Positions 8,602-55,010 of a stretch of DNA of 64,000 nt are shown here, piece by piece. The notes beneath the pieces are model-generated. The model made no database searches and was not told where the DNA came from. It saw nothing but the letters and a program-made list of their open reading frames with translations. A program made the translations under genes and the position numbers. Each line of letters opens with the position of its first letter. The stretch's first letter is position 1. This DNA is from a virus. The stretch lies in the IMG/VR virus record IMGVR_UViG_3300045988_131126; one strand, written 5' to 3'.

Positions 8602-10539
8602 TTATTTTATTTTCTTTAAATATGGTTTAAAATCTTTAGACTTATCAGAATCTCTTATAATAGGTCTAAATGTATTTTCTGGATCATGATAAATTGGATT
8701 ATAAAATCCACTTTCTATATCAGGATAATGATAAATTGGATTATAAAATCCATCACTATTTATATCAAGCATTGGATTTATTGGGAACCTTACTTTAGTA
8801 AAGAATTCATCAAAATCTTCCATCATCTCTCTTATAGATGCTAAATGGAACCAACGTTTACCAACTTCAAGGTAGTTTCCGTTATTAAAGTCCATAAGGA
8901 ATCTACCACCTCTATAATAAAATTCATATCTAAATGGATTTTCATTTTCATATACTTGTGTAGGTATTTCTAATCTACCAACTTGAGTATTTGGAGCCAT
9001 ATTATTTTCTCTTGCAATACTTGGATACAGAGACTTATAATCAAAATCTACTAGATTATCCATAATATTTAAAATCTCTCCATTTTGCTTTAATTTAGAA
9101 TAATCGCTATTATGCTTAGGATTACCTACTAAAGCTCCAGGGAACTTAACGTTACTATTATTTCTATTAACGTTATTACCAATAATAAATCCCTGATTAT
9201 AGAATTCTTTTGCTCCTCTATTTGTAAGATAAACAGTCTGTCTGTGACCTTTATCATATCTTGTATTATTCATTACACACTTACCAAAGATATAATCTAT
9301 ATCACCGGTTTTAACTTCAATACATTTCTGAACAATTGTATCGACGATATTATAGAATACAAATGTCTTATAATCTAAATATGGTAATTTAGAGATATCA
9401 TGTGTAATATGAGAATAATCTAATTTATTTACACCTGCTATAACTTCACCGATATCATCCAATTTAAATGATTTAAATGCTGACTGACCTTTACGTCTTG
9501 AAGCAAATTGAATCATTTGGTCCAATAATACTGTATACATAGAAAACGTATATCTATCGCATCTCTCTGCATATTCATTTCTATGTCTTTCATCTATATA
9601 ATACTTAGCAACTTTCTTTTCAAAAGCTGGATGAGACATGATCTCTGCTGGATCATATCCTAAGTTAATTATTCTCTCATATATATACGGAATATCGAAT
9701 GCCATGTTCCATGCCAATAAGAAGTCTGGTTCATATTTATTAATAAATTGAAATAATGAATATATTAATTGGATCTCTTCATCAAAGAATGCAAGACGTA
9801 CATCCAAATTATCTACTCCATATTTTTTTGCTTTTTCTGGTCCACCTACAGTTGTTATTAAAAACTCTCTTAATTCTTTAAATAAATTTGGATCGGTTTT
9901 TGCTTCATGTTCAAATTTTTCTATTAACGGATTATTTGGGTTTCTTAATAAAAATACTTTTACAAGATTTTCTTGTTCTATTATACATGATACTGCATTT
10001 ATAGGACACTCTCCCATCTCTGGAAAGTCTCCTTTCATATCTATAGTATCAGCCTCAATATCGAAGAATGCCTTCGTTACAGGACAAATATCATTTTTAT
10101 AATATAAATCAAACATGAATTTATATCTGTCTTCTATATTAGAATCACTAAATAATATATTAGGTAATTCGTGTAATAATTGATTATTTCTAAATTGACC
10201 AGTTCTTAAATTCTCATAAAAGAATTCTTCGTTACCTGTATTCTCAGCAATAGATTTTAATAAATCTCTATATTTACAAGTAATCTTATCTACTTTCTCT
10301 TTCTCTACAATAAACAAATTATGATCTGTTGTATATTCAGGTTTTAATTTATAATAATCGAAATCTGGCTTCATAATATACCTATGACCTTTTTTACCAG
10401 TTTCTAAATCTTTATATATCATAAGCATATAATCTGGATCATATTTTCCATCCTCTCTCTTTTGAGGATAATGATATCTATTATCTAATAAAGTAATATT
10501 ACTATTAAAAGGATATCCTTTAATTAATTCATCGCTCAT
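8602..10539 (-). CDS. family-B DNA polymerase, N-terminal part (3'-5' exonuclease + motif A)
   Basis: Exo I FFDIEADT, Exo II WNMAFDIPYIY, Exo III YNIVDTIV and motif A DFDYKSLYPSI occur in order. No KxxxNSxYG or YGDTDS appears before the stop. The C-terminal tail carries 2x GFYNPIYH. Confidence 0.8.
   Translation of the reverse strand: MSDELIKGYPFNSNITLLDNRYHYPQKREDGKYDPDYMLMIYKDLETGKKGHRYIMKPDFDYYKLKPEYTTDHNLFIVEKEKVDKITCKYRDLLKSIAENTGNEEFFYENLRTGQFRNNQLLHELPNILFSDSNIEDRYKFMFDLYYKNDICPVTKAFFDIEADTIDMKGDFPEMGECPINAVSCIIEQENLVKVFLLRNPNNPLIEKFEHEAKTDPNLFKELREFLITTVGGPEKAKKYGVDNLDVRLAFFDEEIQLIYSLFQFINKYEPDFLLAWNMAFDIPYIYERIINLGYDPAEIMSHPAFEKKVAKYYIDERHRNEYAERCDRYTFSMYTVLLDQMIQFASRRKGQSAFKSFKLDDIGEVIAGVNKLDYSHITHDISKLPYLDYKTFVFYNIVDTIVQKCIEVKTGDIDYIFGKCVMNNTRYDKGHRQTVYLTNRGAKEFYNQGFIIGNNVNRNNSNVKFPGALVGNPKHNSDYSKLKQNGEILNIMDNLVDFDYKSLYPSIARENNMAPNTQVGRLEIPTQVYENENPFRYEFYYRGGRFLMDFNNGNYLEVGKRWFHLASIREMMEDFDEFFTKVRFPINPMLDINSDGFYNPIYHYPDIESGFYNPIYHDPENTFRPIIRDSDKSKDFKPYLKKIK
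8686..8752 (-). repeat. perfect 25-nt direct repeat inside the polymerase 3' end
   Basis: Plus-strand ATGATAAATTGGATTATAAAATCCA at 8686..8710 and 8728..8752. It encodes GFYNPIYH twice. Confidence 0.9.
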
Positions 10540-10674: not shown

Positions 10675-11649
10675 ATGGATTTAATATATCACGATTACTC
10701 ATCCGATTCATATAACCCATCTGAAAACCAACCTGTAGTAGCAGGAGTTAAAGATGAAGATATAGGAATAGATTTTTCTAAAATAGGTCAGGATGATTCT
10801 CTTGTTATTTCTTCTCCTGTTGGAATTTCAGAAGAAAAGCCGAAAAGAAAACGAAGAACTGGCGACCCTAATAAAGTAGTAAAAGTTTCTGAGAGTAAAT
10901 CTTCTTCTAATAACAATGGTTTAGAACCATTTGAGAAGAAATATGAAGAAACTAATAGTATGCTTAAAGAAGTAATTGCACAAACCAATATGAGTATGGC
11001 TGATATCAACGAAGATATCAGATTACTTCGTAATTCTAAAACCGTTAGAAATAAATATACTTATTTAAGTAATTTAACAGATGCTTCTGCATCAATGCTT
11101 AGCAATAAACTTAATGCTATTAAGGAAATGAATAACTCTATTACAAAGGCACAAGACTTTGAAATGAAACGAGCTAAAGAGCTTCATCTAAACGATAATG
11201 TAGATGATGATAAAGCTATTCAAGATATGTATAAAGCTTTCGTAACTGCATCAGTTCCTAATCCTTATGCAGCACTTGGACCAACATCCAGAGATATGAC
11301 TGTACGTAATGATGCTATTATAGCAGGTACAATACCTAATAATACTATGGATGATGTTGCTGCTTATAATAATTATGTTCAAAATATGACTCCTCAGCAA
11401 CATATGATTGCATTGGAGAATGATCCTAATGTACAGCAAGTTGTAGTTTGGAACAAATCTACAGGAGCTAAATCATTCGAAATTATGAATATGGCTACTG
11501 GAGAGATTCTTCAGAATGTAGATAAACATGATATTATGTTTATGGAAGATACTACTATAGATGAAAGAAATCATACAGCTAGAAATATCAAACTGAATGA
11601 ATCATATCCTCTTGTAGTAATCGGAGAATCTGCTATCGATGAATATTAA
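10675..11649 (+). CDS. hypothetical protein with N-terminal LIYHDY..YNP motif and KPKRKRR basic patch
   Basis: AAAGGAG SD precedes ATG 10675 (the track GTG start at 10660 lies inside the SD). The protein begins MDLIYHDYSSDSYNP. Confidence 0.65.
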   Translation: MDLIYHDYSSDSYNPSENQPVVAGVKDEDIGIDFSKIGQDDSLVISSPVGISEEKPKRKRRTGDPNKVVKVSESKSSSNNNGLEPFEKKYEETNSMLKEVIAQTNMSMADINEDIRLLRNSKTVRNKYTYLSNLTDASASMLSNKLNAIKEMNNSITKAQDFEMKRAKELHLNDNVDDDKAIQDMYKAFVTASVPNPYAALGPTSRDMTVRNDAIIAGTIPNNTMDDVAAYNNYVQNMTPQQHMIALENDPNVQQVVVWNKSTGAKSFEIMNMATGEILQNVDKHDIMFMEDTTIDERNHTARNIKLNESYPLVVIGESAIDEY

Positions 11650-15175: not shown

Positions 15176-16480
15176 TTATGCATTTATATTTAATGCTTTA
15201 AATGCACTTTCACGAAACTTTAAATAACCTTCCACATTCGATTTAATAAATCCATCTGGGATAAGTTCAAATGTATCTGGAATCATTTTGAAATTTAGCA
15301 GATTAGCTATAGAAAAGATACCTCCCATTCTATCTATTTCGAATTCTTCGTCATCAGAGAGATCATTTATGATAAATTTTAATATATCGTATGCAATCTT
15401 TATAATCTCTTTCTCTGATCCATTAATATTTCCAGGAATAGTAATTAAACGTCCAGCAGGAAAATCATTACTAATTTTAGACATAGAAAAGGATTCTGAC
15501 ACAGCCATTATATATTTATCACCATTATATTCACAGATGCATGAATATAATGGTGTATTTAACCATTCATCAATTTCTACATCTTTTATATACTTTTCTT
15601 TCTTCGGATTCATGTAATCAAAACGCTTAATTGCACGTTTATCTTCGCTTGTGGCTTTAGGCTTTTTATCTAAAAACTTGGTAATGCATGGTATCACGTT
15701 TCTAGTAAACCCTGCTAATTCTTTAATGTCAGCTTCATCTAATAGATTAGATAAAGGATCATCTTCTTCGACCATGCTCTTTAAATTATTGAGAGCCGAC
15801 TTTTTATATTCTCTCGTGTTAAGTATACTATCATAGAACCATCCGCACTCTTCATCTACAAATAAATTATTTTCAAATTCTGTAGGATAAAATGATGCTA
15901 CTGTAAGGAATAATGAAGACAGTGCTGATGGTATAGCATATTGCTGATTTATATCATGGTATATAAGATTTACAAATTCTTTCATTACATGAATAAATGC
16001 TTTTATAATTTCGGTATTATTGCTTCCTAATTTATCGAGAAAATCTTTATATTTTTCTCCAATAGCAAGTATAATAATTTTCTTATTATCTTCTAAATTT
16101 ACTGCCTGTGTAATATATTCATCTTTAAATGAATCGTCTATGGCAAATACAGTTATAGTATCTTTATCAGCGTTGGGGCATACACCAACAAATACTCCTC
16201 TACTATCTTTATTGCAATCATGAAGAAATCTATTTTCTTTAAATAAGCTCCCTTTTATCATAGCTGCTTCAATATTTGCCATAACGAAAGCTTTATCATC
16301 AGTTGATATAGTATCTCCGTAGTTCGGAGCTAATATATTAACTCCATCATCAAAATTAATAGATCCTTTCATTAAAAGTGCTACCTGTTTTACATCTTTG
16401 CAAAAATTCTGATTCTCTGCGCAAAATTTATTCATTTCTTTAGCGAATTCTATTTTTTCTTCCATTGTTAAATTTCTCAT
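15176..16480 (-). CDS. hypothetical protein (domain related to 16748..17491)
   Basis: Start moved to ATG 16480 (AAAGGAGAA SD). It overlaps the upstream stop as ATGA. No Mre11/SbcD phosphoesterase motifs. Confidence 0.6.
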   Translation of the reverse strand: MRNLTMEEKIEFAKEMNKFCAENQNFCKDVKQVALLMKGSINFDDGVNILAPNYGDTISTDDKAFVMANIEAAMIKGSLFKENRFLHDCNKDSRGVFVGVCPNADKDTITVFAIDDSFKDEYITQAVNLEDNKKIIILAIGEKYKDFLDKLGSNNTEIIKAFIHVMKEFVNLIYHDINQQYAIPSALSSLFLTVASFYPTEFENNLFVDEECGWFYDSILNTREYKKSALNNLKSMVEEDDPLSNLLDEADIKELAGFTRNVIPCITKFLDKKPKATSEDKRAIKRFDYMNPKKEKYIKDVEIDEWLNTPLYSCICEYNGDKYIMAVSESFSMSKISNDFPAGRLITIPGNINGSEKEIIKIAYDILKFIINDLSDDEEFEIDRMGGIFSIANLLNFKMIPDTFELIPDGFIKSNVEGYLKFRESAFKALNINA

Positions 16481-16782
16481 AGTGTTTTCTCCTTTTCTTT
16501 TAGTGCTTTGCATACTTCTATGAAATCTTCCATTTTTGAAATTTTCATTGGTACCGGAACACATCCAGTCCAATCTATTTTAAATATTTCTTTGCATTTA
16601 TTGCATTTGAAATATCTAAAACTTCTGTTTTTAAGTTTACTTGTGTCATGAGTACTTAAAAGCATTTGATAATTAAAAGGTCTATTGTAATTATCAAACA
16701 ATTCAAGACTGTCCAAAGCATTACACTTTGGACAGCTCTCGTGATGATCATGATATATCAAGGGTCGTAATGTCTTCGTCAT
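16477..16782 (-). CDS. zinc-ribbon protein with N-terminal PLIYHDHH motif
   Basis: CPKC..(43 aa)..CNKC four-Cys arrangement. SD GAAGAGGA upstream. Confidence 0.6.
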   Translation of the reverse strand: MTKTLRPLIYHDHHESCPKCNALDSLELFDNYNRPFNYQMLLSTHDTSKLKNRSFRYFKCNKCKEIFKIDWTGCVPVPMKISKMEDFIEVCKALKEKEKTL

Positions 16783-18448: not shown

Positions 18449-18745
18449 TCATGAGTAGAATGGATTAAAGTCTTTCATTCTTTTGCTTTTCTTTTCCTTT
18501 ATCAGTTTCTTACTGGATCTCTTAATAAGATAGTGCATACCTTCTTTATCTGCATCATAAACTGATTTACATTCAGTACAAATCAGTTTGATTTCTACCT
18601 CATCGTCTAAATTATTAGATTTAGGTATACCTCTTTTATCTAAATCCATCATACTAATACTTTTTTCTACCAGTACCAAAATACCTTCGCATTTTGGACA
18701 CTGATTTAAACCTAATCTGTGAATTGGATGTATTGGAATATTCAT
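18449..18745 (-). CDS. zinc-ribbon protein
   Basis: CPKC..(35 aa)..CTEC. N-terminus MNIPIHPIH, C-terminus ..DFNPFYS. SD AAGGAGA. Confidence 0.6.
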   Translation of the reverse strand: MNIPIHPIHRLGLNQCPKCEGILVLVEKSISMMDLDKRGIPKSNNLDDEVEIKLICTECKSVYDADKEGMHYLIKRSSKKLIKEKKSKRMKDFNPFYS

Positions 18746-19049: not shown

Positions 19050-20813
19050 TTATTCTGCTACAGCTATACTATTAGGGATACTCTCAATATTATCAATTTC
19101 CTTGTTAATACGAGCTATAGGCGTAATCAATTTCTCAATAGAACTAAGAGTATCTTGAATAACTGCTAAACGTTGTTCTTCAACATTAACTCCGTTTATA
19201 GTTCCTTGATATTCCAATGCATTTTTAAGACCTTCTAACTGAGCATATTGAGCTAATACTTGATCAACTTCTGCTCTCCAGTTATTTGGCTCTTTATAAT
19301 CACTAAAGAAGTTATTATGAATTGAAGCCATCGGGCAAAGCATTCCAGATAATCCTGGATCATTTGCTGTAGAGCTATCCAAATCCAATCTTCCCAAGTG
19401 AGTAGGATGTACTTGTCTATAATTTACTGGAATAGATGCAGTATTACCATCTCCAACTCCACTTACTCCTTTATAAGTGAATTTAAGAGCTGTAATAGCA
19501 TCCATATCATTTACGCTATTATTATAGTTTACCAGACTGTCTTTCGAGATCTGTTTCAATAGAAAATCTGGGAATGTATAAATAGCTTTCTCTAATCTAT
19601 CTATCTGCAATTTGGAAGCTTCATCAGATATTCTATAAAGGCCTGTAGCTAATTTAATAGCATAAATAGCTCCAAAATATTCTTCATATCTGATACGCTT
19701 TGTAGATATATCTAGATTGTCTTTCTTTCTTAATTCATTAAATTCCCTAAGAATCCATATAATTATATCATAGATATTCTTTTTACATTCTTCTGGAAGT
19801 TTTAAGTTTTCTTGAGTTGGAATATCCAATATAGATTCAAGAGAATCTAATACATTTAATCCTTTCTCTACAGTCTTATTGTTGTAAGAATCTCCAAGTA
19901 CTGCTATCCAATACTCTAATGTATAGACATTATTCAATGAGGTTTCCCTTGACACTGAATTATATACAGTATACATTAAACTCTGAGCTACAGGATCATT
20001 ATCATATATATACTTAGGTAATGAAATATACATATTATTTTTCTTTACCGTGTAATAATCATCCTTTTCGATATCATGATCTGAAATGTACAGATCATTT
20101 ACTTTTAATAATTGACAAGTTTGATAGAATCCAAATCTAGCCAATAAGTATCTCATAAGAGGACAATTCTTCTTAAAGATATTACTCATATACCAGATGC
20201 ATTCTTTAGTTTCTCCATTTGTCATTTTAAGCTTCTCTATATATCTATAGATTCTAGATGCCATAAATAAAGTTTTGAAAGCTATATTTTGTGACTTTGG
20301 ATTTGCAGAATTGGAATTATTATAAGTAGATCCATCCACTACCTGATATAGAGATGAATATATATTTCCAAATATTCTGAAATAATATTTGTCAACGATT
20401 TTAGGTACTTCTATAAGCACCCTGAGATTTTTAGATCTAGGAGATCCCTCTTTAGGATTAGGGACCTCCAGATAATAATCAACGATTAATAATCTTATAT
20501 CGGAATCTTTTAACGGGATATAATTATATTTATCGTCGATTTTCTGTTTATTTTTATTCTTAGATTTGAATTTCTCTTGCTCACGCAATAATATACGTAT
20601 TTGCTGATAATCATCCACCACAGAAAAATTCATTACTTTAATGACAAAGTAACGATCTCTCTCGATAGATAATATAACCTTTTTCAAAACTTCTATTATT
20701 GCATCATCAGATCTATTAAATAATTCTGGGTTAAATTGTGGCCTATTCTTATCATTATATTCTCTTATAAAAGAATATTGATTAGGTTCGATCACTTCTC
20801 TATTCACATTCAT
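19050..20813 (-). CDS. multisubunit RNA polymerase beta subunit, N-terminal half
   Basis: YRQVHPTHLGRLDLDSSTANDPGLSGMLCPMA matches the bacterial beta block RDVHxSHYGRxCPIETPEGxNIGL. The ORF stops ~110 aa later. Start moved to ATG 20813 (AGGAGG upstream). Confidence 0.7.
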   Translation of the reverse strand: MNVNREVIEPNQYSFIREYNDKNRPQFNPELFNRSDDAIIEVLKKVILSIERDRYFVIKVMNFSVVDDYQQIRILLREQEKFKSKNKNKQKIDDKYNYIPLKDSDIRLLIVDYYLEVPNPKEGSPRSKNLRVLIEVPKIVDKYYFRIFGNIYSSLYQVVDGSTYNNSNSANPKSQNIAFKTLFMASRIYRYIEKLKMTNGETKECIWYMSNIFKKNCPLMRYLLARFGFYQTCQLLKVNDLYISDHDIEKDDYYTVKKNNMYISLPKYIYDNDPVAQSLMYTVYNSVSRETSLNNVYTLEYWIAVLGDSYNNKTVEKGLNVLDSLESILDIPTQENLKLPEECKKNIYDIIIWILREFNELRKKDNLDISTKRIRYEEYFGAIYAIKLATGLYRISDEASKLQIDRLEKAIYTFPDFLLKQISKDSLVNYNNSVNDMDAITALKFTYKGVSGVGDGNTASIPVNYRQVHPTHLGRLDLDSSTANDPGLSGMLCPMASIHNNFFSDYKEPNNWRAEVDQVLAQYAQLEGLKNALEYQGTINGVNVEEQRLAVIQDTLSSIEKLITPIARINKEIDNIESIPNSIAVAE

Positions 20814-21441
20814 AACTGCCTCCTGTAACGTCAATACTCATTGCTGTACCAATCGGGTTAGGAACGTCCGGCTTGGAATCCTGTAACGTAAGAGTTAACT
20901 TCATATCTAAAGCATCAGCCATTCGTTCCATCATAGTTAATGATACCGTATTTTTATTGAAAATACGTTTGTCATTATTATAATTAGATCCGAATCTATG
21001 CTCATAGTTATCTAGGTTAATATGTTTCTTATTCACCGCTTCTTTTAAAAGTCTCATAGCAGGTGAATCTTTTTCGTCAATAGGATATACTGACGTATTG
21101 TCCGGATTGGTCAATACGTCTTTTTCCATATTGATAACCGTTTGCTGTAAATTAGCCAACTCATCATAGCTTTTAGCTTTACTGAAATCTACTAATTTAT
21201 CTTTACTATATGCTTTTTTATCTTCTGCTGAGGTTGGTAAATATACTCTAGAAATCGTCGGACCGACATCTATACCAACCTTGTTTGCATTATTTAAAGT
21301 ATTACCCGTTAATATAGGTAACACATAATCCTCATCTTCAATTGCTACATGTCCAGATACATAAGCATCTGGATTCTTAGTGTAAGTCTCTAATGAAACT
21401 ACATCATAAAACTTTTTATTTAATTCTGCAACGCCAGCCAT
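20800..21441 (-). CDS. hypothetical protein
   Basis: 213-aa ORF, SD AAAGGAGA. 14-nt overlap with the next gene. Confidence 0.6.
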   Translation of the reverse strand: MAGVAELNKKFYDVVSLETYTKNPDAYVSGHVAIEDEDYVLPILTGNTLNNANKVGIDVGPTISRVYLPTSAEDKKAYSKDKLVDFSKAKSYDELANLQQTVINMEKDVLTNPDNTSVYPIDEKDSPAMRLLKEAVNKKHINLDNYEHRFGSNYNNDKRIFNKNTVSLTMMERMADALDMKLTLTLQDSKPDVPNPIGTAMSIDVTGGSYECE

Positions 21442-21520: not shown

Positions 21521-22120
21521 TTATTCTGTGGCATTTTCAGATGAACTATCATCATCTTTAATCAGTCTCTTAACTGCTCCATCTGGAATGAATGACATAA
21601 CTTTCTCACCATCGATCACATCAACTGTTGCTACGAAATATGGATCGTGCTTAAGTTCGAATGTACTTCCTTCAACAGCATTCTGATCGAGGAAATCTTT
21701 CAGTAATGAGAAGAATAATGTTGATAACTGAGATAATACATCTGGTGCACTAAATCTTACTTTGAAGTCATCGAAACCACGTTTTGCAATAACTTCCTTT
21801 GGACCGGATTCATAGATACTGTATGTTTTACAATCCTTAATATCTTCTGGATCGAATGTAAACTCTACAGACCAGTTGCCCGGATTACCATCTTCGCCCT
21901 CGATATACTCTACAGTAGCAGCTGCTACCATATTTCCTTTGATATCTTCGAATACTAAAGCGGTTTTTTCTTTCTTGGATTTTACCTGTTTTAAGAAATC
22001 GACAGTTCCAGTAATACTGAACTGAATTACCTCAACTACATCTCCAAAGTTTACTGTCCATGACAGTCCTTTGCACTCCTGGATCATGTTTGCGATTAAG
22101 CTGCTGTCTGTTAATTTCAT
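21521..22120 (-). CDS. hypothetical acidic protein
   Basis: 199-aa ORF, SD AAGGAGG. Confidence 0.6.
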   Translation of the reverse strand: MKLTDSSLIANMIQECKGLSWTVNFGDVVEVIQFSITGTVDFLKQVKSKKEKTALVFEDIKGNMVAAATVEYIEGEDGNPGNWSVEFTFDPEDIKDCKTYSIYESGPKEVIAKRGFDDFKVRFSAPDVLSQLSTLFFSLLKDFLDQNAVEGSTFELKHDPYFVATVDVIDGEKVMSFIPDGAVKRLIKDDDSSSENATE

Positions 22121-22255: not shown

Positions 22256-24628
22256 TCAGAATGATTTAGTTTCTAACCCTATATAATTTTTAAAGTCATT
22301 AACTGTCATCATTTTAATGTTATATTTTAATGCTTTTTCACATTTGCTACCTTGATTATATCCATCGTACGGAACCAATAAGATAGCTGTGTCTTTTGTT
22401 ACTCCTGCATTTCCATCTGCATCGTAACCCATTTCGTCTAAGATAGATTCAAGAAATTTATCTCTAAATCCTGTAAATCTAATCTTCTTACGAATTTTAA
22501 AACTACCATAAGAATTCTTATAGTTGAATTCATTTACTATGAAATGAATATCATCCTTAAATGAATTCCACTCTTCTATGATAGTTTCTGTTGTATTTGG
22601 ACCTATACCTTTAATGGTACAGAACATATCTTTTACGTCATCGATATACCCTCCATCTAAATATTGAATTATATCAACTAATGCAATCTTTTCGAATATA
22701 ATTCTCCAAGTTTTAGCTGATAAGTTACTAAATCCCAAAGCTCCGATTAATATATAATCTGGAGTTTCGTTATTTTTGATAGAATCTAATTGATCTTTGA
22801 ATTTAGCTGCATTTGTAGGACCTATAATTTCAACCATTTTATCATATGGATAATCATACAGTTCTTTTAAAGATCCAATCCCTAACGCTGCCATTCTTTC
22901 TTCGGCAATATCCTTGATTCCTAATTTAGCTATCATATTAGAAATCCTCTTTGCTTCTTTACCGACACAATGAAGATTCATACAATAAGCTGCTTTACCA
23001 GACTTAGATATCGTAATCTTACCACCACAGAATGGGCATTTATCTGGAAATACTTCATCTGCTTCTGGTGGTCTATTATGATTATCTCTATTAAATTGAA
23101 TATCTGGTTTTGATACATACGGCATCACATCATGATTATAATCAATATCAATTACATCTCCTTTATAGAGATTTAACTTATTGAAATGCTCATAAGAATA
23201 CCCTGTTGTATGATCATGTATAGCTCCTAAGAACTCTACAGGATCAAAATAAAACATTGGAACTATCATTCCAGATTGACCAATACTATATTTGTAACCT
23301 CTAAATACCGAATGACGTCTCATTGGATTAAATTTTACTGCCATCTTATATTGATCAATGGAATTCTTTCTACCAAGTTTCTTTCTAATCTCAGGATCGT
23401 ACATCTCTGCAACTATTCCATCATACATGAACGGAAGAAACGAGCGCGCAAATTCAGCTTCTTCTGCATATCTTTTAATTTGGAATAATATACTTTGATA
23501 ATTTCCTGAAATAGTCTGATGCTTAAACATGATCTCTCTAGTATAATACCGATTCATGAACTCGATTTCTACTAAACGATCTAATGGTTCTCCATTCTCA
23601 TCTTTTAAAGATGTCTGTAATGGAACCAATGTTATAAAATCTCTATATCGGTATGAATCAGATCTACCTAATATACCAATAATTGCAGTTCTTCCATTTA
23701 TATAATGATTTCCTGTTAATCTATTGATATTATCGAGGTTATTATAGCTTACAATAGCTTCAAACTTCATACCGATAGTTTCCCCTAAATCTACAGCATT
23801 GGGAAACTTATACCCTTTAAATATAGGTGTCAAATCACTTGCTTTCTCAAGATCTGTATCACCTCTTGTCCTTGCAGATATCACCTCTGTATTTACATCA
23901 GCCTCTATAGATATTCCATCATACTTTAAGCTGAGTATTACATCTAACTGATCTGTAGGCTTTATTATATTACTCAATATCATCGGAGCAATCCAATCTC
24001 GCTCCAATACTACCACATTGCTTTGATTGAAAACTCCTCTTTCAATCGCATCAGCACTTAATACAAATTTAGACTTGTGTAATGTACCAACAAGTTCTGG
24101 ATGCTCGTGCTGAGTATTTCTTAATCTCTTCGTGACATCATTGCTCTCTGGTAATAAATCCTTTGCAAAAATGTCATTACTATTAAACTCTCTTCTGATG
24201 TTTATGATGCTTGGAAACATCATATTATTCATCTTTTCAATTTCATCATCCGGTACATGCATTATCGGATTTGACATTTTAGTTTCTTCAGTCTCCATAA
24301 ATTGGGAAGCTGAACCTGCTAAATTTTGCGGAGTCGCTCCAGATTGAATATCTGGTACATACTCCCTCACTTTTTCTAATAATAAATCGTATACTCCATC
24401 ATCTAATAATAATATATCTAAATCACTATTATTATATAAATTATTAGATATTTGGATTATTAGTACACCTTTTTCTACGTCCTCCTTATTCCATACCGGC
24501 TTACTCATTAGGCTCATTGTTTCGTTATTGATCATTTCTTTTGAATCGAATATGATATCTGTTAATGAACCTGAATTAGTAACCAGATTGTTTTTTAAAG
24601 ACTTAAGTATAGTAATATTGTTATCCAT
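22256..24628 (-). CDS. ligA: NAD-dependent (LigA-type) DNA ligase with N-terminal extension
   Basis: KYDGISIEAD (KxDG). LigA-type Cys4 finger CPFCGGK..CMNLHC. HhH-like GIKDIAE and IKGIGPNT. BRCT-sized C-terminus. The ~120-aa N-terminal extension carries NPIMHVP. Confidence 0.7.
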   Translation of the reverse strand: MDNNITILKSLKNNLVTNSGSLTDIIFDSKEMINNETMSLMSKPVWNKEDVEKGVLIIQISNNLYNNSDLDILLLDDGVYDLLLEKVREYVPDIQSGATPQNLAGSASQFMETEETKMSNPIMHVPDDEIEKMNNMMFPSIINIRREFNSNDIFAKDLLPESNDVTKRLRNTQHEHPELVGTLHKSKFVLSADAIERGVFNQSNVVVLERDWIAPMILSNIIKPTDQLDVILSLKYDGISIEADVNTEVISARTRGDTDLEKASDLTPIFKGYKFPNAVDLGETIGMKFEAIVSYNNLDNINRLTGNHYINGRTAIIGILGRSDSYRYRDFITLVPLQTSLKDENGEPLDRLVEIEFMNRYYTREIMFKHQTISGNYQSILFQIKRYAEEAEFARSFLPFMYDGIVAEMYDPEIRKKLGRKNSIDQYKMAVKFNPMRRHSVFRGYKYSIGQSGMIVPMFYFDPVEFLGAIHDHTTGYSYEHFNKLNLYKGDVIDIDYNHDVMPYVSKPDIQFNRDNHNRPPEADEVFPDKCPFCGGKITISKSGKAAYCMNLHCVGKEAKRISNMIAKLGIKDIAEERMAALGIGSLKELYDYPYDKMVEIIGPTNAAKFKDQLDSIKNNETPDYILIGALGFSNLSAKTWRIIFEKIALVDIIQYLDGGYIDDVKDMFCTIKGIGPNTTETIIEEWNSFKDDIHFIVNEFNYKNSYGSFKIRKKIRFTGFRDKFLESILDEMGYDADGNAGVTKDTAILLVPYDGYNQGSKCEKALKYNIKMMTVNDFKNYIGLETKSF

Positions 24629-25867: not shown

Positions 25868-28156
25868 TTATTTTTTAAGAAGCTCTTTCATCGCTTTATT
25901 TGCTCTATCATTAACCTCTGTTGAATACGTTTCTATATCTTTACTCTGTGTACTTGCATCCATTTTCCAAAGCGGTACATGATAAATTGGATTAGCTTTA
26001 AATTTCTTATCTACTTCTAGATCACGTTTAATAGATTTATTAAAATCGTATTTTTCTTCATTAGAAATATGATATATCGGATTATATGATGTATAATCAT
26101 GATAAATCGGGAATTTCTGAACTGGATCTTTCCAAGTTCTTCTTACTTTCTTGAATTTCAGTCTAAGGCCAATGGTCTTAAATCTTACATTGAAAATCTC
26201 GGCAGATCTATCTACAGATTTTTCATCAAGTTTAATATCTACATTATATGGATCATCCGTATATATACTCTGCATTAATAATCTACCATGTGGTGATGAT
26301 GAATAAAGCATCATCATTTCTTTTACAATAGCGACAGGCATATGTGTCATATCACCATTTTCCATTTCACCCATTCTAATAGGTGTACTCTGATGAACAG
26401 ATTTAAAGTTTTTAGAAGCTTTATTTCTACTGTTCTGATTTCTAATATTTGTAGAAGACAATGATGTTACTGAGAACTTATCTTCAGCGTACTGTTTCAA
26501 CCTATAAAAGTATAATCTTCCACATACAATAGGTCTTCTACTTGGTACCATTCGTACATTACCGGTACTTCCTTTAATTGGTACATATAAATATCTAGGC
26601 GTTACATACGAAAATCTATCATAAATCTCCCCTAATCTATCTGTAGTTATAGATTCTGATATTGGTTCCATACTTAGAACAATATGATCTGATTCGATCA
26701 TTCCTAATAAATATTCTTTCTTATATGAAATATCCCAACTATTAAGCAGATATCTTAACTGTGCAGCTTGTAACGGAGAACACATTTCAATGAAATCGGT
26801 CACTTCTTTTAATGCTTCATCCACAGTAAACGGAGTTGTGGATATATATCTTAAAATTTCTGATCCAATAAAGTTCAATTCAAGTTCTTTTAACTGTCCA
26901 TCGTTCAGTCTATTTGTACATGTAGATGAATTTAATATTACTTCAACTCTTGTATTGGATCCTTCTAATACTGGCATTAATTCATCAGGAATTATTCTAC
27001 TGATAACTCCTTTACCGCCATATCTATTTGTAATTTTATCCCCAACCATTGGGACAGATTCTTCCATTACAGTAAAATGAATTACTGTACCTGAATACAC
27101 TTTACCTTTCTCTATATATTGAGCATTTGATATCTCGGATTTTGCTCTATTATAGATAGCATCAAGTCTACCTTTAATCTTTGTGTAACCAAGATCCTTT
27201 AATTGATCTACAGTTTCTACAATTTCTCTCAAGTATCGTTGTTTATTATTATAATAATAAAGCAACTGAGCATTAGTTCTTTTCTCCTGTAATTTCTCTG
27301 GAGAGTTGCAGTTAATGTCAATATCAATAACTTTGCCTGATTTAACCATCCATTTAGTATCAGACATAACAGTTTCTCTTAATTTCTTTTTAGATTGCAT
27401 AAATAATGCATCTTCATTTTTCTCTCTACGAGTAGCAAATAAAATACCATTCCCAACTTCTTCTCCAATATCAGGAAATGATTTGATAAATTCATCATCA
27501 CCTCTAAGATTAAGAGGGATATCATTATCATTGGCAATAGCTTTAACTTTTTTAAACAACGGTGCCGCCAATTTCTTAGCTGCAGATTCAGAGATATTGA
27601 TAGCATCTTCCATCGTACTAGCAGCTGCTATGTATGCTGTTACGAGGTTAACACCAACACCCTGATTATTATAATGATCATAGCTTGTGGACTTAGCTAT
27701 GATTTCTCCCTCTGGAATAGTATCTTCTACTCTATAGGAGTCTATTTGCGAATTATTCATAGCATATCCATAAGATTCTGAATTATGCTTATAGCATTTC
27801 CTTTCAATAATTTGAATAGAATCGTCCTTATCATCAGTACAAATAAGAAAATAATGATGACCAGGAACCTTTTCAAACTTCTCAATTTTACGTCTAATAC
27901 GTAAATCCCCATCTGTTTTCTTAATAGATGCAGATAAATCACCAAATCTGATTTCATAACCAGTTTGAATAATTGGTGGTTCTGAATTTAATATATCTAA
28001 TGCGTGTTCTGTCTGAATACCTGCTAATATTTTTCGAGGTCCAGAGTTGTTGTTATTGAATGGCATTAAGTTTCCTTTACCTAATGCATATTCCATTTTA
28101 GTAATTCTTTTTGCTTCATTTTCAAGAAGCGCTTTGTCGTTGTCCGTCCTTGCCAT
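25868..28156 (-). CDS. multisubunit RNA polymerase beta subunit, C-terminal half
   Basis: MPFNNNNSGPRKILAGIQTEHAL matches beta IPFLEHDDANRALMGxNMQRQAVP. GDKITNRYGGKGVISRIIPDELMP matches GDKxAGRHGNKGVxS. Start moved to ATG 28156. The C-terminal tail carries 3 (F/N)PIYH copies. Confidence 0.8.
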   Translation of the reverse strand: MARTDNDKALLENEAKRITKMEYALGKGNLMPFNNNNSGPRKILAGIQTEHALDILNSEPPIIQTGYEIRFGDLSASIKKTDGDLRIRRKIEKFEKVPGHHYFLICTDDKDDSIQIIERKCYKHNSESYGYAMNNSQIDSYRVEDTIPEGEIIAKSTSYDHYNNQGVGVNLVTAYIAAASTMEDAINISESAAKKLAAPLFKKVKAIANDNDIPLNLRGDDEFIKSFPDIGEEVGNGILFATRREKNEDALFMQSKKKLRETVMSDTKWMVKSGKVIDIDINCNSPEKLQEKRTNAQLLYYYNNKQRYLREIVETVDQLKDLGYTKIKGRLDAIYNRAKSEISNAQYIEKGKVYSGTVIHFTVMEESVPMVGDKITNRYGGKGVISRIIPDELMPVLEGSNTRVEVILNSSTCTNRLNDGQLKELELNFIGSEILRYISTTPFTVDEALKEVTDFIEMCSPLQAAQLRYLLNSWDISYKKEYLLGMIESDHIVLSMEPISESITTDRLGEIYDRFSYVTPRYLYVPIKGSTGNVRMVPSRRPIVCGRLYFYRLKQYAEDKFSVTSLSSTNIRNQNSRNKASKNFKSVHQSTPIRMGEMENGDMTHMPVAIVKEMMMLYSSSPHGRLLMQSIYTDDPYNVDIKLDEKSVDRSAEIFNVRFKTIGLRLKFKKVRRTWKDPVQKFPIYHDYTSYNPIYHISNEEKYDFNKSIKRDLEVDKKFKANPIYHVPLWKMDASTQSKDIETYSTEVNDRANKAMKELLKK

Positions 28157-30834: not shown

Positions 30835-31998
30835 TTAAAATTCATCATCAATCTCTTTAGCTTTTTTATCCTCTGAAAGTTTATTAAAGAAATTAGCTTT
30901 ATCAATAACAGCTTTGTTCTTTTTCTGCGTTCCAATATCAAAGTTGCTATCATCATTGGCAAATGTCTTTTTCTGCATATTACCAAAGAATGTATCTTTA
31001 TCTTTATTTACCATTGCAGTCATTTTCTGATATTTATTATATACAGATTCTACTTCATCCATAGGCATTTTAGAGCCTGCAGAAATAAATGCAATGAATT
31101 GATCCATATCAGATTCATCCTGAATATGCTCAAATTTATCATAGCACTGACCAAATCTTTCAGTAAGAATATCATCATAATCAATATAATCTGTAGAGTC
31201 TTTCTTAATATTGATAATTACTGCCATTCTAGTCTGACTAGGTTCATCAACATCAAGAGTTTTAGAATTATCGATCATATCAATTACGATCTTTCTAAAC
31301 TGCTCTCTATTTTTAATCTTATCTTCAATTACAGCAGATTCAATAACCATATATCCATCTGTAGTAGAGATTTTAAGTAAATCTGTAGGGTCAATATTAT
31401 GATCAGAATCTCTTAACTGTAATCCGATAAGTACAGAAAGCTTTTTGCAGAAATCGATATCTGCTTTTTCTTCTGCTTTAATTCTATTATTATTGCATTC
31501 TGGAAGATATTTTTTAAGTTTAACTGCTTCTGTAGCGAAGTTATTCTGTAATTCTTGGAATATTTCTACAGTGTTCTTTGTTCCTCTTACATCTTCCTGG
31601 AATCCAATAAAGAGAAATACATGTACACTAATACCTAATACTTCTCTAATATATTTTGCAAGTAAAGGAGTAGAACCTGAACCGGTTCCACCTTCAGTAG
31701 AACTTACAAGAACTACTAATTCTGCTTGATCTTCTTTTCCAACACTCAAGAACTCTTCTAATGGAATTGTACCGTCCTGGATTGAATTAGCACATAAGTC
31801 GTAACTCATCTTTCTTTCCTTACCGCATCCGCCATAGCTATTGCTAAATTCGATAGCTGAGCCAGTGTAGTCTTTTGGAATATCTTTAAGAGTACTATTA
31901 ATCAGCATGGTATTTTCTACACTGATAATATCATTTCTAACTGCACAGATAGCAGCTTTGTTTCCTCCAGCACCAATTCCAATTAATTTTGTAATCAT
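30835..31998 (-). CDS. tubulin/FtsZ-superfamily GTPase (PhuZ/TubZ-like)
   Basis: GIGAGGNKA (T1 loop). STEGGTGSGSTP (tubulin signature GGGTGSG-like). Acidic C-terminal tail ..KEIDDEF. SD AAGGAGG. Confidence 0.8.
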   Translation of the reverse strand: MITKLIGIGAGGNKAAICAVRNDIISVENTMLINSTLKDIPKDYTGSAIEFSNSYGGCGKERKMSYDLCANSIQDGTIPLEEFLSVGKEDQAELVVLVSSTEGGTGSGSTPLLAKYIREVLGISVHVFLFIGFQEDVRGTKNTVEIFQELQNNFATEAVKLKKYLPECNNNRIKAEEKADIDFCKKLSVLIGLQLRDSDHNIDPTDLLKISTTDGYMVIESAVIEDKIKNREQFRKIVIDMIDNSKTLDVDEPSQTRMAVIINIKKDSTDYIDYDDILTERFGQCYDKFEHIQDESDMDQFIAFISAGSKMPMDEVESVYNKYQKMTAMVNKDKDTFFGNMQKKTFANDDSNFDIGTQKKNKAVIDKANFFNKLSEDKKAKEIDDEF

Positions 31999-33876: not shown

Positions 33877-34608
33877 TTATGATCTTGTTACGAGATTTTT
33901 CTTTTTACGTAAAGAATAATATGTATAATTATCTTTATCAATAAGATTAGACGTAATATGAGCACCTAGTAAGTAAGTATTTAAAAGGTTCTTAGAAGAA
34001 GCTCCATCTACAGACTTAGGTATATCTTTTAACTTAAACATACCTGTGCTACTAATTTGATTATACATATAGTTTTTAGCTTGCATATCGTCACCTCTAG
34101 ACCCAGCAAACTCTTCCATAGTATTAGTTAATCCCCAGGATGCTAAAGACTCAAACTCTCTATCTGATGTCAGTGCACCTTTATCTCTACCTACTAATCG
34201 TCCAGTCTTATTATCTCTATTAGCAATACTACTAGACCATTTGTTTTTATGGGTAATAAACTGCTGTACTTTCTTAAGATGTAAATACATTACTGTACAT
34301 TCTTGAGATGCTACAGCTCTACCATTCTTATCTCTGTATAATGCAGGTGTATATATTTTTTCTGTTAAAGGTACATTTATAATCTTCAAAGCTTCTATAA
34401 TATCTGTCATAGAAGGATTTGTAGTACCAGTTCTCATTTGGAATCTTATCGGATATTCTTTCTTCATCCAATTCATGAATTGAGTGTCTGATAATTTACT
34501 AAATAAATCTTTATAATATTTAGTATTAGTACCAGAAGTATCAACTCTATCCATTACTTTTATTATTAAATTCTCCACTTGTTTTCTTTTTTTAGGATCT
34601 AAAGCCAT
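33877..34608 (-). CDS. hypothetical protein
   Basis: 243-aa ORF downstream of the fibre cluster. Confidence 0.55.
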   Translation of the reverse strand: MALDPKKRKQVENLIIKVMDRVDTSGTNTKYYKDLFSKLSDTQFMNWMKKEYPIRFQMRTGTTNPSMTDIIEALKIINVPLTEKIYTPALYRDKNGRAVASQECTVMYLHLKKVQQFITHKNKWSSSIANRDNKTGRLVGRDKGALTSDREFESLASWGLTNTMEEFAGSRGDDMQAKNYMYNQISSTGMFKLKDIPKSVDGASSKNLLNTYLLGAHITSNLIDKDNYTYYSLRKKKNLVTRS

Positions 34609-50314: not shown

Positions 50315-52090
50315 ATGTCAACAACAAAAAGCAACATCGTTAAAAAGAAAGCATTAAGAGAAGCACAATTAGATACATTAGAGAAGATTGCTTCAGTAGT
50401 AGGAGAAACAGCAGGCCCAGCAGGATCTTATGTAATGATTCTCAATGAAGCGAGCAACAATGTATTTACAAAAGATGGCCATAAAGTACTGTCTAATATT
50501 AAATTCCTTCAGCCTCTTGAAAGATCTATCATGGAAGAAGTTAATTCTTCTACAGGATATATTGTTAAGACTGTTGGTGATGGAACTACAGCTATGACTA
50601 AAATGGCTTATCAGGTATTCGCCAGATTATGTGAATATGAAGAGCAGCATCCAGAAATTCCGAGACATACAATTATTAATTCTTTTAAAGAAGCAATCAA
50701 AAATGTTCAGGATGCTATTAAGGCAAATAGTAGAGATCTTACATTAGGAGATGTATATAAGATTTGTATGATCGCTACTGATGGTAACAAAGAAGTTTCT
50801 AGTACAATTGCAGATATCTATAATGAATACGATGCAGGTGTATTTATCGAACTTGGTATCTCTAATACAGAAGATCATACTATTGAAGCGTTTGATGGTA
50901 TGACTATCAATAGAGGCTATCCATCTCCAGCATTTATTAATACTGATAGAGGGGTATGCGAAATTAATAATCCAAGGCTGTATTGTTTCACAGACCCAGT
51001 AGATGACGATTTACTTATTCCTTTTGTAGGAAAAATTATATTCGACAATATTACTGGACCTATTACACAGCATAAAGAAATGATTCCTACTGTTATTATG
51101 GCGCCATCTATCTCTAGAGATATGGGTGATACACTTGCTCAGGTAGAACAGTTAATGTATGGATTTAGTGATCCATCTCAGAAACCGCCACTTTGTATTA
51201 TTACAGGTTTCAGTTTAGATCTTCCATTTTATCAAGATCTTATTATGCTCACTGGAGCACCAAGTATTAAGAAATATATTAACAAAGATATCCATGACAA
51301 AGCTGTAGAAAATGGAGATGCTCCATCTATGGAAAATATCTCTGAATTCTATGGTACATGTGAAAGAATCATTTGCGATAATCTTTCTACATCTTTCATC
51401 AATCCTAAAGAATACTACAAGACAGATGAAAATGGTAACTTTATTTTAGATGAAGATGGCAATAAGATCATCGGTGGAAAATACAACGAATTAGTCAATT
51501 GGTTAAAAGCTGAAATTAAGCATTCAGAAGATAACAATGTTGATATCCCTACTGTTAATGGTCTTAAACGTAGATTACATTCATTGGAATCAAACTACGT
51601 TAAATATAGTATTGGTGGTATTGCATCTTCTGATAGAGATGCTGTAAAAGATTTAGCAGAGGATGCAGTTCTTAGTTGTAGATCTGCAGCTAATAACGGG
51701 GTTGGTTATGGAGCTAACTTTGAGGGTCTTATAGCTTCAAGCAAATGTATTTCAAATAGTATAATTGATGGTAAGACTGGTATCGAATTAGATATGTATA
51801 AAATTATATATGGTGCATTCAGAGAAGTCGTATTAACCTTATATAAATCTGTATTAGGAAATGGAGCAGAAGAAGAACTGGAAGCATCAATGAAAATTCA
51901 TTTCCAGCCAATTAACTTAAGAGATCTGGACTATAAAGGTGACGTACTGTGTTCTATTGAAACAGATATTGCTATTCTTGAAGCTATCTCTAGAATTGAG
52001 ACAATGATCTTCAATACAACTCAGTGCTTATTATTCAGACCGACAGATAATGTATATCTGAGCGATGAAGAAATCGACAAAATGAAATAA
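50315..52090 (+). CDS. GroEL-like chaperonin
   Basis: ..VGETAGPAGSYVMI and KTVGDGTTAMTKMAY match GroEL ..VKVTLGPKGRNVVL and AGDGTTTATVLA. ~590 aa. No GroES-like gene adjacent. Confidence 0.7.
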   Translation: MSTTKSNIVKKKALREAQLDTLEKIASVVGETAGPAGSYVMILNEASNNVFTKDGHKVLSNIKFLQPLERSIMEEVNSSTGYIVKTVGDGTTAMTKMAYQVFARLCEYEEQHPEIPRHTIINSFKEAIKNVQDAIKANSRDLTLGDVYKICMIATDGNKEVSSTIADIYNEYDAGVFIELGISNTEDHTIEAFDGMTINRGYPSPAFINTDRGVCEINNPRLYCFTDPVDDDLLIPFVGKIIFDNITGPITQHKEMIPTVIMAPSISRDMGDTLAQVEQLMYGFSDPSQKPPLCIITGFSLDLPFYQDLIMLTGAPSIKKYINKDIHDKAVENGDAPSMENISEFYGTCERIICDNLSTSFINPKEYYKTDENGNFILDEDGNKIIGGKYNELVNWLKAEIKHSEDNNVDIPTVNGLKRRLHSLESNYVKYSIGGIASSDRDAVKDLAEDAVLSCRSAANNGVGYGANFEGLIASSKCISNSIIDGKTGIELDMYKIIYGAFREVVLTLYKSVLGNGAEEELEASMKIHFQPINLRDLDYKGDVLCSIETDIAILEAISRIETMIFNTTQCLLFRPTDNVYLSDEEIDKMK

Positions 52091-53557: not shown

Positions 53558-54052
53558 ATGGCTATTATTAAAGAATATTATATACTTATTAATCGTAAAA
53601 AAGTTTTTGCACCGTGCAGAACAGAAAGAAATGAAACCATTTCATGGTTTCGATGCAATCAGGCGTATCTTCGAAAACAGTATGGAGATATTTCTAAAGC
53701 AGAATTAATAGAACGAGTAACAACGGTTGAGAGTAGTATTAATATGGATCTTAACCATGTAAAATATATGATAATATGCACTCGTCCAGATACTGACGAA
53801 CGTTATTACATAACCAAAACTAAAAGTGGTATGCCGATTGTAACTGAAAGTTTCGACGATATGGCCGAAGGTGATCTTTTATTTGAAAAAGAATTTTTAG
53901 CTAAAAACTATATCAAAAGACATGAGAAAACTTTAAGAGCTTTATTTAAAGAAGACGTAATAGAAACAATCAAAACTGAACCGGTATCAGAAGCTGTTGT
54001 TATTGCGTGTAGACAGAAGTTAAAAAATAGAAAGGTGGAAGATGTAATATGA
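53558..54052 (+). CDS. small hypothetical protein, family B (1/3)
   Basis: SD GAAGGAGA. Clear similarity to 54522..55010 (..ISWFRCNQ..YGDIS.. / ..ISFFQCNK..YGDLS..; ..CTRPDT.. / ..CTRPKS..). Confidence 0.65.
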   Translation: MAIIKEYYILINRKKVFAPCRTERNETISWFRCNQAYLRKQYGDISKAELIERVTTVESSINMDLNHVKYMIICTRPDTDERYYITKTKSGMPIVTESFDDMAEGDLLFEKEFLAKNYIKRHEKTLRALFKEDVIETIKTEPVSEAVVIACRQKLKNRKVEDVI

Positions 54053-54525
54053 TCGGAGTAGAAACGTTAAATACTAGATATTATTTCGAATTAAATGGAA
54101 AGAAACTTATGCATCGAGTTGCATACGATTTCGATTCAGAAAAGAAAGCGAGTGAATACTTTCTAAAAAATATACAAATGTATAGAAATTTATACGGAGA
54201 AAATGTAAATAATTTTATATTGGTAAGAGAAGAAATAATTGCCATGCGTAAAATGATCAGACGAATGGAACCCGTTAAATATATTATAGGAGTCGATACA
54301 GAAATCGGAGAGCTTTATGTAGGAATGACTACATTAAATGAAACCGAAGTTCCATATCTTTCTCCAATTAAATCAGATATATTAAATACTAACTATTTTA
54401 CTTCAAAAGAATTAGCAGAATCTGTAATAGACGAATATAAAATCGCATTGAAACCTTATTATAAAGAAACTATATTAAATAATCTGAAAGTAATAAAAGT
54501 CGAGGAGGAGGTATATAATATATGA
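54049..54525 (+). CDS. small hypothetical protein, family B (2/3, divergent)
   Basis: ATGA overlap with the upstream stop. Same length class and similar C-terminal ..KVIKVEE. Confidence 0.6.
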   Translation: MIGVETLNTRYYFELNGKKLMHRVAYDFDSEKKASEYFLKNIQMYRNLYGENVNNFILVREEIIAMRKMIRRMEPVKYIIGVDTEIGELYVGMTTLNETEVPYLSPIKSDILNTNYFTSKELAESVIDEYKIALKPYYKETILNNLKVIKVEEEVYNI

Positions 54526-55010
54526 CAAAAATTAATTATTATATTAGCATAAACGGGTATCAAATATCTTGTGGCTGTGGGGACGATAAGAATAAGGCTA
54601 TATCGTTTTTTCAATGTAATAAAGAACAACTTGAAGTCACATACGGAGATTTATCAGGGGCTACATTAGTAAAAGAAATTACAGAAGTACATACTAAAGT
54701 TGAGATGAGACTTGATGAAGTTAGATTTATTTTAACTTGTACTCGACCAAAATCTAGCGGATGGAACTATTATGTATCTAAAACATCAAGCGGATACCCG
54801 ATTATAGTTCTTGGCTATGACGATATGATAAAAGGTGGTCTTTCATTTTATAGCGAGGATTCTGCCAAGTTCTGGATTGAAAACCACAAAGATCAATTAG
54901 AAACTCTGTACAAAAAAGAAGTGATAGATACTATTAAAATAATACCAATATCTTTAGCTGAAATTGTTGCGGCTAAAGAACAAATAAATCAAAGGGAGGG
55001 TTCTAAATGA
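54522..55010 (+). CDS. small hypothetical protein, family B (3/3)
   Basis: ATGA overlap. SD GAGGAGGAGG. Confidence 0.65.
   Translation: MTKINYYISINGYQISCGCGDDKNKAISFFQCNKEQLEVTYGDLSGATLVKEITEVHTKVEMRLDEVRFILTCTRPKSSGWNYYVSKTSSGYPIIVLGYDDMIKGGLSFYSEDSAKFWIENHKDQLETLYKKEVIDTIKIIPISLAEIVAAKEQINQREGSK

Follow-up and report, generated by a model that had tools for sequence, protein, structure and literature searches.

In phage T4, replication and transcription proteins are coupled to one hub, the gp45 clamp, through short peptides, and the C-terminus of the T4 polymerase gp43 reads SLDFLFG. Comparable ligands are the PIP box, Qxx[ILM]xx[FY][FY], and the bacterial clamp-binding motif, QL[SD]LF. 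A different kind of sorting is known from the chimalliviruses, in which nuclear import recognises folded surface patches and no linear signal sequence has been found. Here we describe a short peptide tag in a stretch of 64,000 nucleotides (nt) of the IMG/VR virus record IMGVR_UViG_3300045988_131126, referred to below as the window. The tag was noticed as a tandemly duplicated peptide, GFYNPIYH, in the C-terminal tail of a DNA polymerase (DNAP). Judged by its sequence, the source of the window (G+C content 30%) is a jumbo phage whose polymerase is only ~30% identical to those of AR9/PBS1 and Staphylococcus jumbo phages. In related genomes the tag changes between lineages, and within one genome it does so in step across seven or more protein families. 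We consider it probable, though well short of certain, that the tags serve for multivalent docking to a single hub, encoded by the phage and evolving along with them, which would gather replication and late-transcription enzymes on phage DNA.

Results

An exact-match search reproduced the perfect repeat reported in the first-pass annotation: ATGATAAATTGGATTATAAAATCCA lies on the plus strand at 8686-8710 and 8728-8752, with 0 mismatches and an offset of 42 nt. A search for further matches with up to 3 mismatches found none (0 in 100 dinucleotide shuffles). Both copies fall inside the 645-amino-acid (aa) open reading frame (ORF) 8602..10539 on the minus strand, and each encodes GFYNPIYH. The C-terminal end of this ORF reads ..INPMLDINSDGFYNPIYHYPDIESGFYNPIYHDPENTFRPIIRD.. 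/ ..INPMLDINSDGFYNPIYHYPDIESGFYNPIYHDPENTFRPIIRDSDKSKDFKPYLKKIK. While the earlier count of two copies is right for NPIYH itself, the tail holds four units (NPMLD, NPIYH, NPIYH and RPIIR) with a start-to-start spacing of 11-14 residues. From the codon usage of the window, we estimated by hand a chance of ~0.8% that two GFYNPIYH peptides share all 24 nt, and in the 94% identical orthologue P0001 the units read NPIYH and NPIFH with differing flanks. The perfect repeat is therefore a recent duplication or gene conversion between neighbouring units, which is one way in which a version of the tag can spread within an array.

The ORF does belong to a DNA polymerase, one of family B, but only the N-terminal fragment of a split enzyme is present. 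The ORF ends ~125 residues past motif A, no ORF with PolB motif B or motif C was found in the window, and neither these motifs nor a PolB C-half turned up in the flanking loci that were sampled. The enzyme is thus a split one, and its catalytic C-half lies elsewhere in the genome. AR9 gp132 is annotated alike, as a 'partial catalytic domain'.

The tag is shared with the transcription machinery. The identical 15-mer ATGATAAATTGGATT that had been pointed out in the tail of the C-terminal half of the RNA polymerase (RNAP) beta subunit (beta-C) is indeed present at 25979-25993, and two further units precede it in the protein (Table 1). The best characterised match of beta-C is AR9 gp089, annotated 'non-virion RNAP subunit'; the N-terminal half (beta-N) was identified by the beta fork motif RQVHPTHLGRLD and a match to phrog_2943. 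A split RNAP and a PhuZ-like tubulin, both named in the first-pass annotation, are encoded in the window. No RNAP beta-prime was found in the loci searched. Additional tags are found in an NAD-dependent DNA ligase and at the N-termini of the proteins p324, p101 and p98, the last two directly before a zinc ribbon, and less clear ones in beta-N and p213.

The first-pass annotation had proposed comparing the motif with shuffled sequences and asking which proteins carry it. Among the 64 ORFs of the window, xP[ILVM][YFM]H was seen 6 times against 0.26 expected, NP[ILVM][YFM]H 5 times against 0.02, and the tripeptide IYH 11 times against 1.3; 0/1000 within-protein shuffles attained the observed counts. 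The chaperonin, primase and tubulin of the window have no comparable tag, and neither have its tail, sheath and virion genes or its small-gene arrays. The tag is limited to nucleic-acid enzymes and their small partners and is absent from structural proteins, as the annotation had anticipated. About 6 kb of sequence added beyond the window contained no new client. We rejected the idea of a virion-packaging signal on grounds of orthology: the tagged beta-C is the orthologue of the non-virion AR9 gp089, and no tag is carried by the virion proteins or by the virion-RNAP fragment 33877..34608.

Table 1. Tagged genes and individual tag units in the window.
Feature	Coordinates	Strand	Remarks
Split family-B DNA polymerase, N-terminal fragment (exonuclease and motif A DFDYKSLYPS), 645 aa	8602..10539	-	phrog_3011 aa 43-578; Pfam DNA_pol_B_exo1
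Disordered C-terminal tail of DNAP fragment, aa 584-645, four tag units and short terminal helix	8605..8790	-	AlphaFold2; beyond PHROG profile
DNAP tag unit 1, NPMLD, aa 588-592	8764..8778	-	12 residues before unit 2
DNAP tag unit 2, NPIYH, aa 600-604	8728..8742	-	within repeat copy 8728-8752
DNAP tag unit 3, NPIYH, aa 614-618	8686..8700	-	within repeat copy 8686-8710
DNAP tag unit 4, RPIIR, aa 625-629, degenerate	8653..8667	-	RPIIR/RPVIR kept in orthologues P0001-P0003
Non-virion RNAP beta subunit, C-terminal half, 770 aa	25868..28180	-	phrog_3295 aa 33-656; Pfam RNA_pol_Rpb2_6
Tag FPIYH, RNAP beta-C tail, aa 690-694	26099..26113	-	
Tag NPIYH, RNAP beta-C tail, aa 700-704	26069..26083	-	codons AATCCGATATATCAT
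Tag NPIYH, RNAP beta-C tail, aa 730-734	25979..25993	-	15-mer ATGATAAATTGGATT as in DNAP
Tag NPIMH, aa 120-124, N-terminal extension/inserted loop of NAD-dependent DNA ligase (ORF 22256..24628)	24257..24271	-	upstream of ligase profile
Tag MDLIYHDY, extreme N-terminus of p324 (10675..11649)	10675..10698	+	
Tag RPLIYHDHH, N-terminus of p101 (16477..16782)	16741..16767	-	directly before CPKC..CNKC zinc ribbon
Degenerate double tag NIPIHPIHR, N-terminus of p98 (18449..18745)	18716..18742	-	directly before CPKC..CTEC zinc ribbon
Possible degenerate tag ITPIARI, near C-terminus of RNAP beta N-half (19050..20813)	19107..19127	-	clear tag in other lineages
Tentative tag position PTISRVYLP in p213 (20800..21441)	21235..21261	-	flavour-like strings there in orthologues

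The DNAP family has more than 1,600 database relatives in public metagenomes; the best 120 of these are 50-94% identical and lie on contigs of up to 330 kb, and the IMG identifiers of some of the relatives' samples look like Human Microbiome Project ones. On inspection, most of the DNAP tails of these best 120 orthologues carried 2-4 short tandem repeats, and a minority were acidic or otherwise non-repetitive. The tag system was found in most of 186 unique DNAP orthologues, in which repeated patterns averaged 3.23 in the tail compared to 0.76 in body windows, with 12 residues as the commonest spacing. The sequence of the tag depends on the lineage, and we call these versions flavours: NPIYH, NPMYH, NPFYH, [KS]P[IV]xY, xAF, xLF, PLM, [KR]G[VI]xY and [KR]PF in DNAP tails, with NPFIH, KPF, GMxY and KLFHK as further ones. 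Genomes that exemplify them are contig k141_81319 of ENA ERZ27254938 (274,140 bp) for NPIYH, IMGVR_UViG_3300028591_000078 for NPFIH, IMGVR_UViG_3300045988_134186 for KPF and IMGVR_UViG_3300027542_000007 for GMxY. Absence from orthologues had been named in advance as something that would speak against a shared signal. The literal NPIYH is indeed absent from most of them, but a lineage equivalent stands at the same positions, which strengthens the idea. AR9 gp132 (555 aa) and gp089 (666 aa) are without a tag-bearing tail, so that the tail system is specific to this clade.

The flavour is a property of the genome. For DNAP and RNAP-beta proteins matched by contig, inspection revealed the same flavour in both tails in 11 of 11 pairs, and 21 such pairs shared 3.19 3-mers when taken from the same genome compared to 0.90 when taken from different genomes (p <= 5e-5). 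A survey of 160 IMG/VR loci around DNAP and RNAP-beta genes found the genome's own flavour in the orthologues of the p324 N-terminus, of the p101 and p98 N-termini before CxxC, of the ligase loop and of the beta-N C-terminus. The N-termini of p324 orthologues, for instance, read MKPFTRE, MAINPFIPI, MKKMVTFKE and MRVISFDN. On contig IMGVR_UViG_3300028591_000078, [NRKHS]PFIH occurs in the beta-C tail (three times), the ligase (twice), beta-N, p101 and p98, and close variants are present in the DNAP tail, where NPFIH is flanked by KPFES and KPFEH, and at the p324 N-terminus (NPFIP).

Co-variation of the clients was measured by exact 3-mer sharing with a permutation test. It was significant for the N-termini of p324 (p = 2e-4, n = 54), p101 (p = 2e-4) and p98 (p = 0.002-0.006), for the ligase loop (p = 2e-4), and for the beta-N C-terminus when compared with DNAP tails (p = 4e-4) but not when compared with beta-C tails. 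UvsX, SbcC, the tail sheath, a virion protein, the virion-RNAP beta fragment and the p199 C-terminus gave no significant result in this test, and neither did p213 by exact 3-mer sharing, despite flavour-like strings at one position. The C-terminal tail of the tubulin was rejected as a client: its value was borderline (p = 0.013) and is probably compositional, and no tag is visible. As a separate observation, beta-N of the distant lineages at loci L023, L024, L028, L041 and L056 ends in a conserved GLPLEGSGRI[QY]Y[VE] in place of a flavour tag.

All tag copies are in frame, and in four lineages synonymous codons vary among the copies (CCA/CCG/CCT, ATT/ATA/ATC, TTT/TTC, GGT/GGA/GGC and AGA/CGC/CGA), so that selection must act on the peptide. 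Transfer of DNA as the origin of the shared 15-mer ATGATAAATTGGATT was rejected, since this sequence uses the commonest codon at every position while other copies use CCG and ATA; its identity in the RNAP gene is due to codon bias. Disorder was predicted for two clients, the DNAP tail and the p324 N-terminus. The AlphaFold2 (AF2) model of the DNAP fragment, built with 63 orthologues (mean predicted local distance difference test score, pLDDT, 83.8), is folded up to about residue 583; residues 581-645 have block-mean pLDDT values of 43-63, and their sole secondary structure is a helix at 638-643. In p324, all but one of residues 1-81 have a pLDDT below 50. Docking of the tag on its own protein was rejected, as both models leave the tags disordered. 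The tag thus has the features of a short linear motif (SLiM) in the ELM sense: a core of 4-5 residues, such as [NF]PI[YM]H in the window or NPFIH, [KR]PF and GM.Y elsewhere, AF2-predicted disorder in the DNAP tail and p324, and recurrence in at least seven unrelated families, at the same positions in orthologues and with each lineage's own flavour. By reasoning, we also set aside protease-site, modification-site and nucleic-acid-binding readings, given the tandem arrays, the lack of a conserved modifiable residue and the lack of any cause for within-genome co-variation.

Three clade proteins were considered as receptors of the tag. According to AF2, p324 consists of a disordered N-region of ~80 aa, in which the clade consensus has an AT-hook-like KKKRGRPxK, a helical hairpin and a small C-terminal alpha/beta domain. 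Its orthologues also contain a second invariant short motif, [IM]PDF[TS]K, represented in the window by GIDFSKIG at ~10760-10785 (plus strand, aa ~30-36). Like p213, p199 is clade-specific; it has 199 aa (21521-22120, minus strand) and a conserved acidic C-terminal end, PDGxMKxxIKDD, and hhalign finds a weak internal duplication between its two halves (P = 5e-4). We regard p199 as a candidate hub or client. In lineage L121, p199 carries an extra C-terminal tag. Neither p199 nor p213 could be retained as a clamp, as neither has a PDB or Pfam match.

Several observations concern other features of the window. The C-terminus of p98 reads DFNPFYS (18452-18472, minus strand), and orthologues keep [DE][FY]NPF[YQL] or ..NPF.. 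whatever their flavour; this is presumably a second, not co-varying motif for a different partner. The PhuZ-like tubulin (30835-31998, minus strand) has a C-terminal region of ~70 aa with 2-3 conserved [DN]xFF motifs (DTFF, ANFF) and the acidic-aromatic end EIDDEF; these features persist from lineage to lineage and bear no relation to the tag flavours. An internal NLIYHDI lies at 15950-15970 in a 462-aa ORF (15176-16564, minus strand), with 2 orthologue matches among the 160 loci. Read at its longest, this downstream ORF shares its first 88 nt with the p101 ORF (16477-16782), and its true start is therefore probably a later Met. A 243-aa RNAP beta fragment (33877-34608, minus strand; phrog_3233) adjoins the tail genes and has no tag; it is probably a piece of the virion RNAP. 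A GroEL-like chaperonin is encoded at 50315-52090 (plus strand; phrog_5725, Pfam Cpn60_TCP1). Paralogues of ~160 aa stand in a row at 53558-54052, 54049-54525 and 54522-55010 (plus strand), with identities of 39% (E = 1e-42) and 21% (E = 2e-5), within a longer run of similar-sized small genes. Finally, ORF 62768-64000 (minus strand) runs off the window; a 274-kb ENA contig (L163) shows that it encodes the C-terminal portion of a protein of 671 aa, which has a Pfam Sigma70 region-4 match.

Discussion

We propose that GFYNPIYH is this lineage's version of a docking tag of 4-5 residues with the rough form [P/G/A or other small residue]-hydrophobic-x-aromatic/His, after which acidic residues are common. 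Tags are displayed on tails and loops, disordered or putatively so, of the DNAP N-fragment (3-4 copies, mostly 10-15 residues apart), of both non-virion RNAP beta halves (3-6 copies in beta-C) and of the NAD ligase (1-2 copies), as well as on p324 and the two zinc-ribbon proteins, and one common phage-encoded receptor would read all copies. The coherence across at least seven families argues for one shared reader, and the common frame kept across flavours fits one conserved pocket whose specificity shifts by lineage; this pocket may have drifted between lineages and dragged the tag of every client along. Tandem copies would provide avidity for an oligomeric, lattice-like or DNA-bound hub, and the enzymes would thereby be concentrated together on phage DNA, following the logic of clamp-binding and PIP peptides as in T4 gp45 with gp43, gp33 and gp55. 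The motif, its enrichment, its disorder, the selection at the peptide level, the restriction to certain clients and the within-genome coherence are seen directly, while we infer from sequence the binding to a protein partner, the origin of this partner in the phage and the co-recruitment of the clients. Client restriction, disorder and coherent lineage change lend strong support to the suggestion, made in the first-pass annotation, that a short motif on unrelated replication and transcription enzymes is a shared docking or targeting signal.

A number of points weigh against docking on a common hub. The support for it is comparative throughout, and it covers only ~70 kb of this lineage's ~275-kb genome, which leaves the list of clients incomplete. 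The tag fits none of the known clamp-binding consensus sequences, and it is unusual for clamp ligands to form tandem arrays or 5-residue doublets. No receptor was found among the candidates p324, p199 and p213, for which PDB and Pfam gave no relatives: p324 was rejected as a recognisable hub, since neither its model nor its sequence has a counterpart among solved PDB structures, and hhalign revealed no similarity between p199 and T4 gp45. No clamp or RFC was matched among 40 window proteins compared with PHROGs, 20 of which were also compared with Pfam. Group-1 jumbo phages have been reported to be without a classical sliding clamp (PMC7824862).

Distinctly less likely, in our view, is that the tag serves as an address label that admits proteins to a phage-built compartment or condensate, with an importer or scaffold as its reader in place of a DNA-tracking hub. 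The large number of clients (at least seven families within 25 kb) and the multivalency of their tags would suit such a label, as would the PhuZ-like tubulin encoded in the same module, the scaffold-like build of p324, in which the tag precedes an 80-aa disordered region with the KKKRGRP consensus, a helical hairpin and a small domain, and a lineage-specific selectivity that parallels species-specific chimallivirus import. However, UvsX, SbcC and primase act on the same DNA and yet are untagged, the import of chimalliviruses works through surface patches with no signal sequence found, the nearest cultured relatives PBS1, PALS_2 and phiR1-37 have no chimallin, and no shell protein was seen in the window. 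The annotated proteins of the window likewise include no chimallin, although no comparison with a chimallin sequence was made. Tentatively, one may picture a peptide 'zip code' by which a large uncultivated, AR9-related and tubulin-encoding clade would sort its replication and late-transcription machinery into a compartment or condensate through a linear, multivalent and rapidly co-evolving signal. If so, no targeting system of the signal-sequence type would have been described before for the replication compartment of a phage, and the differing flavours would prevent cross-use by co-infecting relatives or host decoys.

It is improbable that the tags instead bind each other as short beta-strand zippers, so that proteins of the same flavour co-assemble without a separate receptor. 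Such pairing would require the same sequence in every client, as is seen, and it would be in keeping with tags that are multivalent and rich in aromatic and beta-branched residues and that in p98 and p101 stand directly before a zinc-ribbon strand. Regular strand pairing, though, is hard to reconcile with Pro or Gly at position 1 or with the 5-residue doublets, AF2 gives the tails no strand propensity, and the flavours keep a common scaffold (small, hydrophobic, x, aromatic, acidic) as expected for one pocket.

Marginally less probable again is recognition by a chaperone or protease, that is, by the GroEL-like chaperonin (50315..52090) or an unfoldase, for which the tag would single out large split enzymes to be folded, assembled or degraded at a set time. 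In its favour, the window encodes a chaperonin, ring chaperones are multivalent binders of short hydrophobic peptides, and the tags stand at termini in the manner of degrons. Against this, neither the tail sheath nor the virion proteins nor the virion-RNAP fragment bears a tag, the clients include zinc ribbons of 11 kDa, and the client set is defined by function, as nucleic-acid enzymes, and not by size or fold. Moreover, AR9-like phages presumably also encode a chaperonin, yet AR9 is without the tails.

A DNA- or RNA-level element (promoter, terminator or gene-end repeat) or a chance or compositional artefact, which the perfect 25-nt repeat of the two DNAP copies and the position of many tags near gene ends might suggest, has practically no standing, as other copies keep the peptide with different synonymous codons, every copy is in frame, and the enrichment and permutation statistics exclude chance.

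Whatever its reader, the tag provides a means of recognising from sequence which proteins belong to a phage replication and transcription factory, and a route to the putative hub by co-variation or peptide pull-down. Its flavours would amount to a natural set of mutually orthogonal peptide-receptor pairs and to a rare clean example of a whole SLiM client set co-evolving with its reader. If the reader is a ring or scaffold, it may prove to be the processivity or organising factor that the 'clamp-less' group-1 jumbo phages have been missing; with an importer or condensate scaffold as reader, the system would be the phage counterpart of nuclear localisation signals. Full-text literature searches gave no prior description of a linear docking or targeting motif common to jumbo-phage replication and transcription enzymes, in agreement with the annotation, to which no described motif of such sequence was known.

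Among known systems, the most superficial likeness is to the eukaryotic FxNPxY/NPxY ligand of PTB domains, which FYNPIY of the window matches literally. We regard this match as a coincidence, because it belongs to one lineage's flavour and sister lineages have KPF, GMxY, xAF or PLM at the same positions. Encapsulin cargo-loading peptides, microcompartment encapsulation peptides and the T4 capsid-targeting sequence are closer in design, being short terminal peptides, sometimes repeated, that are carried by unrelated cargo and read by one shell or scaffold; unlike their cargo, the clients described here are non-virion enzymes (RNAP beta, DNAP and ligase). With PicA/Imp import in chimalliviruses, the tag would share a phage-encoded, lineage-specific sorting of replication and transcription enzymes in the presence of a tubulin. 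It differs in that a linear peptide in disordered regions takes the place of the surface patch.

The nearest parallel is the T4 gp45 system, in which short hydrophobic peptides in flexible termini or loops are likewise common to one virus's DNA polymerase, ligase and late-transcription machinery, which couples replication and transcription proteins to one hub, and to which recombinase and SbcCD-type nucleases are not clients. Here, DNAP, NAD ligase, both non-virion RNAP beta halves and small zinc-ribbon proteins are tagged and UvsX, SbcC and primase are not, a client list that resembles that of T4 gp45 or PCNA. The differences are that no clamp or clamp loader was recognised in the window, that the sequence is unrelated to the gp45, PIP and beta-clamp motifs, that 3-6 tandem copies occur per protein, and that the flavour shifts between related lineages. 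Relative to clamp-binding peptides, then, what is new about this tag is its unrelated sequence, its tandem multivalency and its fast, co-ordinated change of flavour.

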